A stretch of DNA of 64,000 nucleotides from Myripristis murdjan (GCF_902150065.1 NC_043987.1:1625386-1689385), one strand, 5' to 3'; positions 4,599 through 46,730 are shown, numbered from the stretch's first letter. A program made the numbers and translations. Notes: generated from the sequence alone by a model not told the origin.

Positions 4599-4601
<3 letters not shown>

Positions 4602-4632
<31 letters not shown>
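4602..4632. repeat. (CA)n microsatellite in the TLCD3B 5' leader, 12 nt upstream of the ATG
   Basis: (CA)15 ending at 4632 (acacacacacaaac), with the ATG at 4644. Confidence 0.9.
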
Positions 4633-4762: not shown

Positions 4763-4892
4763 GTAAGAACACACACACACACTCACACTTGCGTTCTGCA
4801 TAAACACTGGAGCTGGGTGGCTTGTCCAGTGACTGAAAGCGGAGAGAAAAAAAAGCACTTGTTGACCACATGCTGCTGTCCTTTCATATCAG

Positions 4893-4976: not shown

Positions 4977-5335
4977 GTGAGTACAAACCTGTATGTGTGT
5001 GTGTGTGTGTGTGTGTGTCTACATGCTTTGTATACTTCTTGAGTTGTTCACATGTATTCGTTGCCTATATATGGCAGTGATAGTGGTTGTCTATGGGAAG
5101 CCCTTAACTTGCAGTGACATTTTGATGGGTGTCCACACAAGCATGGCAGTGCTTGGCTGTAAATGTTCTATTCCTGTTCTTATCGTCCCGGCTCGATTGC
5201 GTTTTCGTGTCTCATGATGATTTCAGTGCTGCTTCAGATGCTGACAAGACTGAGAGATGTCAAATATCAGCGCAAAATATCATCTTTTTGGCTTGCCAGC
5301 TTCTAAAACGATCGGTGTCATCACTCAGAAAACCC

Positions 5336-5625
5336 CAAATTGCTCAAACCCTAACCCTAACCCTAACCCTAACCTAACCCTAACCCTAACCCCAACCAAC
5401 CCTTGCTCTAACCCTAACCCTAAACCTAACCTAACCCTAACCCTAACCCCAACCTAACCCTTGCTCAAACCCTAACCCTAACCCTAACCCTTGCTCTAAC
5501 CCTAACCCTAACCCCAACCTAACCCTAACCCTAACCTAACCTAACCCTAACCCTAACCCTAACCTAACCCTAACCCTAACCCTAACCCCAACCAACCCTT
5601 GCTCTAACCCTAACCCTAACCCAAA
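5336..5625. repeat. Interstitial telomeric repeat array, (CCCTAA)n C-strand on +, with periodic CCTTGCTC interruptions
   Basis: About 40 CCCTAA/CCTAA units in TLCD3B intron 2. Variant blocks (aaccaacccttgctctaaccctaa) recur at roughly 60-120 bp spacing, indicating a higher-order repeat. Confidence 0.9.
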
Positions 5626-8258: not shown

Positions 8259-8686
8259 GTAACTATGGGGAAAACTAAGGATCCGTGGATGCGATAGAGA
8301 TGGGGCGTGAATGAGTGAATAAAGCATGCACCAAGGATTTTACTTGAAACTTTAATTGTCCTGACTAAAGACACAACCCTAGACATAGAGTTGATACGCT
8401 ATATGGAGTTTGACCTCTCAAACATTTACGGAAATATGTTCCACTTCCTGTTTGCAAGTCTTCACTATCAACGTTTTTGTGTGTGTCGTGGCCAGACAGT
8501 TGCAGGTATCAAAATACTGCGACTCAGTGATGATGCAGGCAGCTGAAATATATTGTGTGTAAAATTTCATTGCAAACAAAGCAATGTTGCTCTAACATCA
8601 AGCATTTAGGAATCATGCCTCTTCTCTGCTCCCTTACAGTTACTATGAAATCTATCAAAATGCATCATTTGTGTTCTCTGTGTTCT

Positions 8687-8736
<50 letters not shown>

Positions 8737-8738
8737 AG

Positions 8739-8834
8739 TTCTGGAGGCAGGGGAAGGGCGATTACTTCCAGGGCGTCTTGTTTCTGGCTGAGCTCAGCAC
8801 ACCGTCTGTCTGCTTGGGGAAAGTCCTAATTCAG
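8739..8834 (+). CDS. tlcd3b: TLCD3B-like coding exon 4
   Basis: Acceptor (GT)19-tcag|TTC, with the microsatellite in place of the polypyrimidine tract. Donor CAG|gtgagc. Translation FWRQGKGDYFQGVLFLAELSTPSVCLGKVLIQ. Confidence 0.8.
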
Positions 8835-16709: not shown

Positions 16710-17079
<370 letters not shown>

Positions 17080-35198: not shown

Positions 35199-35417
35199 CA
35201 AGAGGAGGAGGAAGAGGAAGAGGAGGAGGAGCTGATGGAGGAGAGGGCCAAGCGTTCACGGAGGAGTGGTGTCCTCCGTCGGCCTGGAGATCGCTGGATG
35301 TTGCGTGGGCCGATTGAGTATGTCCCCCCTGCCACCGTGGAGGTGGTGCTGAAACGCCAGGCCATCCCATTGGACGAGAATGAGGGCATTTACGTCCGGG
35401 ACATTAAGACAGGAAAG
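35199..35417 (+). CDS. mvp: MVP coding exon 8 (begins with a poly-Glu tract encoded by a GAG/GAA repeat)
   Basis: Acceptor ctctttgccag|CAA and donor AAG|gtgagt. Translation [73 protein letters not shown]. The exact acceptor inside the GAG repeat is uncertain by a few codons. Confidence 0.85.
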
Positions 35418-43994: not shown

Positions 43995-44206
43995 AACTCC
44001 AACCGGATTATCTGCTCGGCGGTGTTTGGCTTTGATGAGAAGCTGGCTGTTCGGCCGAGCCTGCGCTTCAACCAGAACAACCTGGTGATCAGCAGCGTGG
44101 ACATCCAGTCTGTGGAGCCTGTAGACCAGAGGACCCGGGACGCCTTGCAGAAGAGCGTCCAGCTCGCCATCGAGATCACCACTAACTCCCAGGAGGCTGC
44201 AGCACG
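43995..44206 (+). CDS. mvp: MVP coding exon 12
   Basis: Acceptor ggtttgtggctag|AAC, a weakish polypyrimidine tract. Donor CG|gtctga. Translation [70 protein letters not shown](R). Confidence 0.88.
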
Positions 44207-44635
44207 GTCTGAGTCTTACACTCACACACACACTCATACACACATACAGCTAGCAGTGTACTGGTAAATAGAAAATTGAGTTACTGCAGGTCCTGAAAAA
44301 GGCTGAAAAGGCCTTTTTTATTTTTTACTAATTTCTCAGGAATTTTTGGGGCGTTATTTGATAATTTGCTCATTTCCCACATGTTTTTGAAAGGAACAGA
44401 GTGAATCATAGGTTCACAGGTTGAAAAGGGTTACTTGAGCTTAAAATTTTTTTTTTGATTGGTTGTATTGTGGCAAGGCCATGGGCACTGCACCTGATCT
44501 GCCTAGTGGGCCCAACCACTCTGATTTCCTTCCTTATATTAAGATTTGGGAAGTTTGGGAAGCCAGTATATTGTTTTGTTTTTCGTGCCTTTTCTTATTA
44601 TTCTGCCTTTATTTTTTTAACTTATATGTGTGCAG

Positions 44636-44752
44636 TCATGAGGCGGAGCGGCTGGAGCAGGAGGCTCGTGGGAAGCTGGAGAGGCAGCGCATCACTGACC
44701 AGGCTGAGGCTGAAAGAGCCAGAAAGGAACTGCTGGAGCTGGAGGCTCTCAG
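44636..44752 (+). CDS. mvp: MVP coding exon 13 (start of the coiled-coil/cap-helix region)
   Basis: Acceptor ttatatgtgtgcag|T and donor AG|gtgagt. Translation [38 protein letters not shown]. Confidence 0.92.
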
Positions 44753-45312
44753 GTGAGTTAGAGGCTCGCTGCTTTACTGGACATGCAGCAGTAATATGTG
44801 CTGGCAAGCAGGTTTATTTGTATCACAGCTTTTGTAGACAGTGTAATTCAAAATGCTTTACATTGGGTTAAAAAAGAAATGATATAAAATAACAAAAAAA
44901 CAAAAGTAATAAACCATGACAACATACAAAAAATTGGAGGATCCTAGGACAGACAAATGACTTAGTTGTAGGCAACGCTGAATGTGTACGTTTTTGGAGT
45001 TTCACATGGTAAAAAGCAGGCCAAAAATGATTTGGAATCAAAAAGTGTTTTAAAATCAGTTCTTTGAACTACTGGGAGTAGGGACTTGAGAATTGGATAT
45101 GTTCGCATTTTCAAATTTTTGTCAGTACTCTGGCAGTGGCATCGCACAAGCAATTCAATTTGTAGATGAATGTGAAATAGTGCAACTGCAGTTGCAGGAG
45201 CATTAACACGCTATAAAGGTCACTCACAGCAGTTCAGCAAAGAGCTGATGGAAATCCTAAGTCCCGTGTGTGTGTGTGTGTGTGTCTGTGTGTCTGTCTG
45301 TGTGTGTGTCAG

Positions 45313-45439
45313 TGCTGCAGTGGAGAGCACAGGAGCTGCCAAGGCTGAGGCCCAGTCCCGGGCGGAGGCGGCTCGAATTCAGGGTGAAGCAGCAGTCCAC
45401 GAGGCCAAACTCAAGTCTGAAGCACAGAGGATTGAGGCT
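45313..45439 (+). CDS. mvp: MVP coding exon 14
   Basis: Acceptor (GT)n-gtgtcag|T, with a GT microsatellite abutting the splice site. Donor GCT|gtatgt. Translation (S)[42 protein letters not shown]. Confidence 0.92.
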
Positions 45440-46501
45440 GTATGTACCCCCACCCCAGTGAAGATCACTTTATACTTCTGTGTCAAAATATCACAGCAGG
45501 CTCCTGTGCCTCTGACATAGCATACAGAGGCTGCAACCACATCTTCCCTATCTAAAAATGTAACTGCAGGATCTCTGATGAGTCTGCCACATCGCATTGT
45601 ACTTGTTCTGTGTTTTGCTGATTGATTCCCACTGAATGATGACAACATGATGCTAGTTGTCATCTCTCTTCACCCGCATGGAACTGACAAGATTTGTGGA
45701 TCGGTGCTAATGTTGCCAACTCATCCACAAATTTATGATTCATGATTTTAGTAGGAATGATCATTTTTTTGTATCATAATTCACATTTTCACAGTAAAAT
45801 GATGATAATGTGATTTGGCCAGGGCGTCTCTGCAGCACCCTTATGCTTTATTTACAACAATATTTTCACATACATTTCATCTTTACCAAAAATTTGCAGC
45901 TCCTGTAATTTGACTATGGTATTTGGCTATATTTGATTTTGATAATATTTCAATTAATGTCCAGCCCTGCTTTGGACACCACTACTGTGTCTGAGGGTGG
46001 ACTGAGAATGCAAAAAATATTGCCTCTGTTTTTATCTGTGCTTTATTAACCTAGAATTAATAAAGTTTTGACACTGCTATCAAGTGTTTCAGGAATTAAC
46101 TCAAAGGGCGCAAATTCTCTAACACTAAACTACTGTATAAATGCTCACACCAGCGTACACTACTACAGCGTAGTTACAGCAGTGTAGAAGTATAATTTGA
46201 CCTTTGTTGGGGAAAAACAAGGGAGCTCTGTGTGTGTGTTCCTGTACTTGCAACGTAGTGAGGACCAGAACACATTTCTAACCAACACAGTGGGAAAGTA
46301 AGACATTTTGGCCTATCCTCGCATATACAAACGAAAACTGTGTCTTATTGGTCTAGGTTAGGGTTAAGGGTAGAATTAGGTTAAGGTAAGGGTTTTAGGT
46401 TAGCAATGTGCTGGTTATGGTTCTGATTAGGGAAAGGCTGTAGAAGGCTATAGAGAATGAATGGAGGTCAATGTAATGTCCTCACAAAGATAGAAAACCT
46501 A

Positions 46502-46503
<2 letters not shown>

Positions 46504-46538
<35 letters not shown>
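46504..46538. repeat. (GT)n microsatellite forming the pyrimidine-tract position of MVP exon 15 acceptor
   Basis: (GT)18 immediately followed by gcag|GAAGCAGAG. Confidence 0.9.
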
Positions 46539-46541
<3 letters not shown>

Positions 46542-46730
46542 GAAGCAGAGCTACAGCGGCTGGCCAAGGCTCGAGAGCAGGAGCTGGGCTATAAGAAAGA
46601 GATGGACCGTCTGGAGGTGGAGAAGCAGGAGCGGCTGGCCCAGATAGAGAGCCAGCGTTTTAGCCAGCTGGTGGAGAGTCTGGGCAGCGACACCTTGAAG
46701 GAGATGGCCAGAGCTGGACCAGAGCTTCAG
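46542..46730 (+). CDS. mvp: MVP coding exon 15
   Basis: Acceptor (GT)19-gcag|GAA and donor CAG|gtaata. Translation EAELQRLAKAREQELGYKKEMDRLEVEKQERLAQIESQRFSQLVESLGSDTLKEMARAGPELQ. Confidence 0.92.

Follow-up and report, generated by a model that had tools for sequence, protein, structure and literature searches.

The stretch of the Myripristis murdjan genome analysed here (64,000 nucleotides of one strand, called the window below, with all positions counted from its first letter) carries TLCD3B and, further downstream, MVP, both on the + strand. The exons of TLCD3B were placed by tblastn with a non-authoritative human FAM57B query, and the junction was rechecked against UniRef proteins; those of MVP, which has 16 coding exons from about 23.1 kb to 47.6 kb, were placed with a likewise non-authoritative rat MVP sequence, and their junctions were rechecked against PDB chains. 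Three introns of these genes end in a GT microsatellite that leads straight into the C-A-G of the 3′ splice site, and the features that define these three sites are the following:

8259-8738, + strand: TLCD3B intron 3 (gtaact...tgtcag), phase 0, with exon 3 and its donor placed
8698-8735, + strand: site 1, a (GT)19 microsatellite, (GU)19 in the pre-mRNA, followed by C-A-G at 8736-8738 and by TTCTGG from 8739
8736-8738 and 8739-8834, + strand: the acceptor CAG and TLCD3B exon 4, 96 nt, 32 codons, in frame
44636-44752, + strand: MVP coding exon 13, 117 nt, in frame, between an AC tract and the first GT run of MVP
45266-45309, + strand: site 2, (GT)10 CT (GT)3 CT GT CT (GT)5, at the 3′ end of MVP intron 13
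45310-45312, + strand: the site-2 acceptor cag, followed by TGCTGCAG from 45313
45313-45439, + strand: MVP coding exon 14, 127 nt, frame AG|T GCT GCA
46503-46538, + strand: site 3, (TG)18, at the 3′ end of MVP intron 14, followed by cag at 46539-46541 and by GAAGCA from 46542
46542-46730, + strand: MVP coding exon 15, 189 nt, in frame

A preliminary description of this DNA had reported GT microsatellites at the acceptors of TLCD3B exon 4 and of MVP exons 14 and 15. All three repeats were found, at coordinates within 1-3 nt of those it gave, and its exon assignment (MVP exons counted as coding exons) and acceptors are correct by reading frame and homology. In TLCD3B, the FPASV|FWRQGKGD junction is uninterrupted in the UniRef fish proteins P0125 and P0126. 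In MVP, exon 12 ends at 44206 and introns 12, 13 and 14 occupy 44207-44635, 44753-45312 and 45440-46541, respectively; the translation of the spliced exons 12-16 matches solved MVP structures over residues 594-850 (E = 4e-94), and the alignment is ungapped at LELEALS|AAVESTG and IEA|EAELQR. An alternative acceptor for site 2, tgctgcag|TGGAG, located 8 nt downstream, was rejected: spliced there, exon 14 would be out of frame with the exon-13 donor, and the MVP alignment would no longer be free of gaps. The flagged exons are also present in spliced homologues of both MVP and TLCD3B.

The window holds further repeats, which are recorded here as observations in their own right. Upstream of TLCD3B there is a tandem duplication with a 150-nt unit (2551-2850, 98% identity), and (AC)15 at 4601-4630 ends 13 nt before the TLCD3B start codon. 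Intron 2 of the same gene contains an interstitial telomeric array of about 48 tandem AACCCT units, the C-strand of the vertebrate telomere (5347-5622), and a compound microsatellite, (TG)n(TA)n, spans about 365 nt (16713-17077) between TLCD3B and MVP. Coding exon 8 of MVP includes (GAG)10 at 35202-35231, which encodes poly-glutamate and is absent from the rat MVP sequence used, and a degenerate TTAGGG-like patch (ggttagggttaagggtagaattaggttaaggtaaggg) is found at 46350-46400 in MVP intron 14, about 100 nt 5′ of (TG)18.

Within 40 nt of the AG, pure pyrimidine runs reach at most 2, 3 and 1 nt at sites 1, 2 and 3, compared with 5-29 nt at the other 17 of the 20 acceptors of TLCD3B and MVP, so that conventional signals are also in use in M. 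murdjan. Uridine content is not lowered at the three sites (0.47-0.50 against a median of about 0.38), and the zones free of AG up to the used AG extend over 97, 49 and 46 nt, respectively. The three flagged exons have 60-63% purine in their first 30 nt; the other exons have a median of about 47%, and several of these ordinary exons are just as rich in purine. More specifically with regard to position, TLCD3B and MVP have about 28.5 kb of intron and 20 acceptors; GT runs of 6 units or more occur four times on the sense strand of this intron sequence, and three of them terminate exactly at C-A-G|exon. A hand estimate that allows 5 nt of slack puts the probability of such placement by chance at p ~2e-7; the placement of GT runs at acceptors is not chance. 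The fourth GT run and the AC runs that follow donors in the same genes are these:

4769-4782, + strand: (AC)7 after the donor of TLCD3B intron 1 (gtaaga-acacac)
4995-5018, + strand: the fourth GT run, (GT)12, 19 nt into TLCD3B intron 2
44218-44248, + strand: an AC-rich tract (acactcacacacacactcatacacacatac) that starts 12 nt into MVP intron 12 and is complementary to the downstream GT runs

TLCD3B exon 2 has one of these AC runs upstream (4769-4782) and the fourth GT run downstream (4995-5018), a possible exon-looping geometry.

Within TLCD3B and MVP, GT repeats stand at acceptors and AC repeats at donors, never the reverse, and either selection or a mutational seed effect would be required to account for this strand bias. 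The same bias bears on explanations at the level of DNA, in which (GT)n would form Z-DNA or exclude nucleosomes at the intron-exon border, slow RNA polymerase II and thereby aid co-transcriptional recognition, or in which the repeats would be recombination or mutation hotspots with no role in RNA. Even taken together these explanations are highly improbable: they have in their favour the presence of alternating purine-pyrimidine DNA and nothing more, whereas a DNA-level effect should ignore strand and the sense strand has GT at three acceptors and AC at the only two donor-abutting repeats, the (GT)12 run at +19 of TLCD3B intron 2 being the one exception to this argument.

The preliminary description had also stated that the three acceptors have essentially no conventional C/T tract. 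This holds for the nucleotides adjoining the AG, where pyrimidine runs are 1-3 nt long, but not for the intron as a whole in the case of TLCD3B exon 4, which keeps a 30-nt tract further upstream:

8617-8639, + strand: a consensus-like 3′ splice site, unused (cctcttctctgctcccttacag), at the upstream edge of the 97-nt AG-free zone
8668-8697, + strand: a conventional polypyrimidine tract in TLCD3B intron 3, 26 of 30 nt pyrimidine (87%), with a pure 15-nt run at 8683-8697

This tract lies directly 5′ of (GT)19, and the repeat pushes it to about 41 nt from the AG. The consensus-like site at 8617-8639 is located 99 nt 5′ of exon 4, and its use would lead into TTA CTA TGA, with an in-frame stop; it could be a decoy or a former acceptor. 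In Lucifuga dentata (L015) and Ameca splendens (L016), long pyrimidine tracts are found at the AG of TLCD3B exon 4 and neither has a GT run at this acceptor, in copies that may be orthologues or paralogues of the gene in the window. Fish carry two such genes, tlcd3ba and tlcd3bb. In ORF fragments from other vertebrates, FWRQ is preceded by CLFSLQ, VSFFQ or CSLFQ, that is, by pyrimidine-rich codons. Because of the ordinary tracts at the AG in two other fishes, and because the upstream tract has been kept, the TLCD3B repeat seems to have expanded specifically in this lineage, wedging itself in after a tract of older origin and before the AG. In the same contig of Lucifuga dentata (L015, 4941-8188), the gene downstream of TLCD3B encodes Phe_ZIP and SH2 domains and looks like SH2B1.

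In the two MVP introns, a motif that resembles a branch point by its sequence stands on the upstream side of each repeat:

45256-45261, + strand: branch-point-like cctaag, 4 nt 5′ of the site-2 repeat
46498-46503, + strand: branch-point-like cctaat, abutting the site-3 repeat

There is no adenine between cctaag and the site-2 acceptor CAG, the candidate branch A at 46502 is 39 nt from the site-3 acceptor G, and the only adenines near the MVP runs on their upstream side are those within cctaag and cctaat, directly before the runs. Orthologues have tgtaaac-like motifs where cctaat stands before the exon-15 repeat. It is plausible that cctaag and cctaat are the branch points of these MVP introns. 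The branch adenine is predicted at about 45259-45260 for site 2, at 46501-46502 for site 3 and between 8640 and 8667 for TLCD3B. At all three sites, the repeats lie in the interval between the (candidate) branch point and the AG, in agreement with the preliminary description, which had placed them in the position normally bound by U2AF65.

Instead of full-length proteins, the homologue search mostly yielded short ORF calls, of prokaryote style, on contigs from fish; since such ORF fragments read through acceptors, they were used as a survey of intron ends. Among 58 fragments that cover the exon-15 acceptor of MVP, 22 have Cys-Val codons (tgtgtg) just before the CAG, 22 have pyrimidine-rich codons, and 14 begin at the CAG and are uninformative. 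The DNA of the MVP locus was compared in 11 species-level loci at exon 15, in 10 at exon 14 and in 7 species at the exon-12 donor, the closest exon-15 matches to the window being L001, L005 and P0001 (97-98% identity). At the exon-15 acceptor, runs from (TG)3 to at least (TG)47 are present in 8 of the 11 species-level loci:

Window: (TG)18
L001 and L005: (TG)4
L006: (TG)8
L007: (TG)9
L013: (TG)10
L020: (TG)3
L002 (Xenotaenia resolanae, 1-110): at least (TG)47, then tttcag, the contig starting inside the repeat
L003: degenerate gtgtgttcgtgtttctgcag
L017 and L019: no TG run, a plain pyrimidine tract, with the exon conserved

At the exon-14 acceptor, runs of at least (TG)3 occur in 8 of 10 loci; most loci have (TG)2-10 followed by (t)ttcag, and L020 has a plain tract with the exon conserved. 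In L017 (1-52), a run of at least (TG)21 stands at the exon-13 acceptor, again in a contig that starts inside the repeat. An AC run follows the exon-12 donor in five of the seven species compared (window, L006, L007, L013 and L020) and is absent in L003 and L019. The comparison of orthologous introns that the preliminary description had proposed is therefore mixed in its outcome: the TLCD3B repeat is absent in Lucifuga and Ameca, whereas the MVP TG run recurs in most percomorph loci, with plain tracts in a few. On this comparison, the two MVP repeats are greatly expanded forms of a short TG run that percomorphs repeatedly show at the same acceptors. The recurrence of the TG runs at the two MVP acceptors and of the AC run at the exon-12 donor, in introns whose surrounding sequence looks dissimilar where visible, hints at something more than neutral tolerance.

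Repeats of this kind could in principle be read by a protein, and the preliminary description had proposed hnRNP L, with repeat length modulating exon inclusion. However, both genes and the GT repeats lie on the + strand, so that the pre-mRNA carries (UG)n at all three sites and the proposal concerns the wrong strand: hnRNP L binds CA repeats and TDP-43 binds UG repeats (PMC5959245), and CELF proteins bind the UG repeat of CFTR as well (PMC2978352). Regulation of splicing by hnRNP L via intronic CA repeats of variable length is reported by Hui et al. (2003, 2005, as cited in PMC5959245), and the protein could act on the AC runs past the donors of TLCD3B intron 1 and MVP intron 12, but neither of these is a flagged site, and no CA repeats or CA-rich clusters occur in the RNA at the three flagged sites. 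Action of hnRNP L on the repeats is thus hardly credible, and by analogy with the known binders, any protein that reads them would be a UG binder, TDP-43 or CELF, rather than hnRNP L.

The corresponding model is that of CFTR exon 9, in which TDP-43 and/or CELF2 bound to (UG)n would promote skipping and repeat length would be a tuning knob for exon inclusion. The sense strand does give (UG)17-22 directly at the 3′ splice site, and the UG repeats at the end of CFTR intron 8 are bound by TDP-43 and CELF proteins, with exon 9 skipping as a result (PMC2978352, PMC2709582, PMC12171016). Binding of U2AF65 is independent of the UG repeat and requires at least 5 U (PMC2978352), and with no U-run after the repeat there would be little for U2AF65 beside the AG. 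Such a model would suit exon 15 (189 nt) and TLCD3B exon 4 (96 nt), both of which keep the frame, but the skipping of exon 14 would cause a frameshift, the exons encode a conserved core (the MVP region aligned to residues 594-850 and the TLC domain of TLCD3B), and the spliced protein P0002 together with many other spliced homologues contains both MVP exons, 14 and 15. A length-tuned regulatory role is weakened further because the number of units varies between 0 and at least 47 from species to species while the exons are conserved; such a range is unlike a tuned element and would argue against any tuned regulatory length. Length-dependent repression is therefore an unlikely explanation of the three sites.

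A different role for the repeats, in RNA structure, is suggested by what is known from teleosts, in which GT repeats peak directly before 3′ splice sites, with AC repeats following the donor sites (Lin et al. 2016, Genome Res 26:12, PMC4691745). This is a published genome-wide feature, and the occurrence of three such acceptors in two adjacent genes, which the preliminary description had called striking, was overstated in that respect. The AC/GT enrichment was first noted by Yeo et al. 2004, as cited in PMC4691745. In an intron that has both AC and GT repeats, the two form a duplex that connects the splice sites, and U2AF2 is no longer required for splicing; the pyrimidine tract is absent from 61% of zebrafish (AC)m-(GT)n introns, compared with 23% of all fish introns (PMC4691745). 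In the last 40 nt, GT hexamers (GTGTGT/TGTGTG) number 32 in TLCD3B intron 3, 16 in MVP intron 13 and 31 in MVP intron 14, and a search of the first 40 and the first 200 nt of the same three introns found no AC hexamer. Having no AC partner in their own 5′ ends, the three fall outside the (AC)m-(GT)n class and are GT-only repeat acceptors. MVP intron 12 alone here fits the hexamer definition of that class (8 AC matches and 1 GT match), with cacacacaca 16-26 nt past the donor and tgtgtg 3-9 nt before the AG.

Predicted folds are in line with this assignment, in that none of the three flagged introns forms a bridging hairpin when folded alone. For TLCD3B (GU)19, 0 of 38 positions are paired in the minimum-energy fold of the intron (pairing probability 0.10), and the only partners of the MVP runs, each folded with its own intron, are weak ones outside the repeats, at -25 to -29 kcal/mol; over all three runs, the best own-intron duplexes reach -22 to -29 kcal/mol. 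The structure model of Lin et al. (2016), by which (GU)n would pair with an upstream AC element, join the splice sites and replace U2AF2, would consequently have to work across exons in MVP. The sole good partner there is the AC tract of intron 12, with a pairing that would span exon 13 or exons 13 and 14, in a Dscam-like or exon-looping arrangement that could order intron removal or promote skipping.

The predicted duplexes of this AC tract are strong, with energies of -39.6 kcal/mol for the site-2 run and -49.6 kcal/mol for the site-3 run. In a joint fold from intron 12 to intron 13, with exon 13 included, the tract is expected to pair with 27.5 of the 44 positions of the site-2 run, and in the fold of the whole 2.4 kb (through exon 15) the tract pairs with the exon-15 run instead, as it does in L006, L007 and L013. 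The model also gains from the recurrence of the AC run after the exon-12 donor in five of seven species, from the hexamer content of MVP intron 12 and from the length of exon 13, 117 nt and in frame. However, complementary repeats pair in any thermodynamic fold, which makes the predicted pairing of the AC tract with the longest GT run nearly trivial and not evidence of function. Furthermore, AC hexamers are absent from the 5′ 200 nt of the flagged introns, whose own partners reach at best -22 to -29 kcal/mol, the TLCD3B run is predicted to be unpaired, skipping of exon 14 would shift the frame, and L003 and L019 have no AC run. In the earlier work itself, cross-exon AC...GT arrangements are avoided, and loci with a single AC repeat and GT repeats in successive introns displayed no mutual exclusion on testing (Lin et al., PMC4691745). 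Taken together, these points leave the structure model a doubtful account of the three sites. Compensatory interruptions between the AC tract and the site-2 run were looked for by eye and rejected, as the two mismatch and the C interruptions in the GT run face no G.

A narrower version would concern percomorph MVP only, where the AC run past the exon-12 donor and the GT runs at the next acceptors might form a conserved long-range pairing system, the AC run acting as one ‘selector’ for several ‘docking’ sites (at exons 14 and 15 in most species and at exon 13 in L017). Such a system is hypothetical and decidedly improbable. If the idea were true, the pairing would set the order of intron removal or yield an in-frame isoform without exon 13, whose 39 residues belong to the stretch of MVP that aligns to residues 594-850 of the solved structures, and repeat expansions such as those in the window would shift the pairing balance. 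Individual AC-GT introns are poorly conserved between fish species (PMC4691745), and set against this the TG/AC recurrence in MVP is mildly surprising; at 7-11 loci, it may be taken as a lead, not a result.

The three sites are probably ordinary, most likely constitutive, teleost 3′ splice sites of the GT-repeat type with a tolerated AG-free microsatellite spacer. In this explanation, (GT)n would have expanded inside the interval from the branch point to the first downstream AG, and the expansion would be tolerated there because (UG)n contains neither AG nor A, thus creating no rival acceptor and no rival branch point. The (UG)n spacer would still offer uridine at every second position, the branch-point region just 5′ of the repeat would be recognised (in TLCD3B together with the intact 30-nt pyrimidine tract that also lies directly 5′ of the repeat), and the first AG past the repeat would then be used, as the textbook rule has it. 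The purine-rich starts of the downstream exons may help as exonic enhancers, and repeat length is probably near neutral, to judge from the sequences compared. Fish microsatellites are known to gain or lose many units at once (PMC4691745). Nevertheless, a GT run without a partner is not automatically harmless, since the chimeric intron CON-GT, which has GT repeats and no AC partner, was spliced inaccurately in transfected cultured cells (PMC4691745). Beyond Lin et al., no later work on GT-only teleost acceptors came up in a search of the literature.

If the constitutive reading is true, it adds nothing new on splicing itself, as the three sites would be three more of the GT-repeat acceptors already catalogued in teleosts. 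Their interest would be that (i) they are natural GT-only acceptors without the same-intron AC partner required by the published model, (ii) one of them retains a pyrimidine tract (TLCD3B) and two do not (MVP), which makes them clean substrates for studying recognition by the fish spliceosome and (iii) gene finders trained on pyrimidine tracts will under-score such genuine acceptors during annotation. The recurrence of the MVP TG runs and of the intron-12 AC run contrasts with the poor conservation reported for such introns and may merit a targeted look.

Introns with distant branch points have long AG exclusion zones, with the first AG downstream being used, as reportedly described by Smith et al. 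1989 and Gooding et al. 2006. The sites described here are similar to such introns in the AG-free interval of 46-97 nt between the likely branch point and the used AG, but the interval is a GU repeat in place of the long pyrimidine tract of the classical cases. Like the teleost (AC)m-(GT)n introns, they belong to a bony fish, their pyrimidine tract is obscured by a long GT repeat at the 3′ splice site, and other donors of their genes (TLCD3B intron 1 and MVP intron 12) are immediately followed by AC runs. Unlike in those introns, the first 200 nt of the flagged ones contain no AC repeat, and the TLCD3B run is predicted to be single-stranded, with a normal tract kept upstream; unlike the poorly conserved instances of Lin et al., the TG runs and the AC run of MVP recur in several species.

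The (TG)m(T)n element of CFTR intron 8, whose UG repeat is bound by TDP-43 as cited in PMC4691745, likewise has UG repeats directly 5′ of a 3′ splice site, and its repeat length modulates exon inclusion through UG-binding proteins (PMC2978352, PMC2709582, PMC12171016). In CFTR, however, a polymorphic U-run between repeat and AG binds U2AF65, whereas here the run goes straight to C-A-G at all three sites. The CA elements bound by hnRNP L (eNOS intron 13; Hui et al., as cited in PMC5959245) are also intronic dinucleotide microsatellites of variable length, but on the opposite strand, with CA where the present sites have UG.

Finally, the acceptor of human APOA2 intron 2 is (GT)16GGGCAG, as cited in PMC4691745. 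There, as at the present sites, the exon is included although its acceptor has a GU tract where the pyrimidine tract would be, inclusion in M. murdjan being likely from the spliced homologues. The APOA2 acceptor was reportedly described by Shelley and Baralle in 1987, and TDP-43 is said to act on its GU tract with exonic enhancers counteracting (Mercado et al. in 2005). APOA2 is said to depend on such enhancers, a dependence that is suggested here only by the purine content of the exon starts, and it is a single mammalian case, whereas three in 20 introns are found here, in a lineage where such acceptors are common. By analogy, the GT-only acceptors of TLCD3B and MVP would be functionally closest to the APOA2 acceptor.
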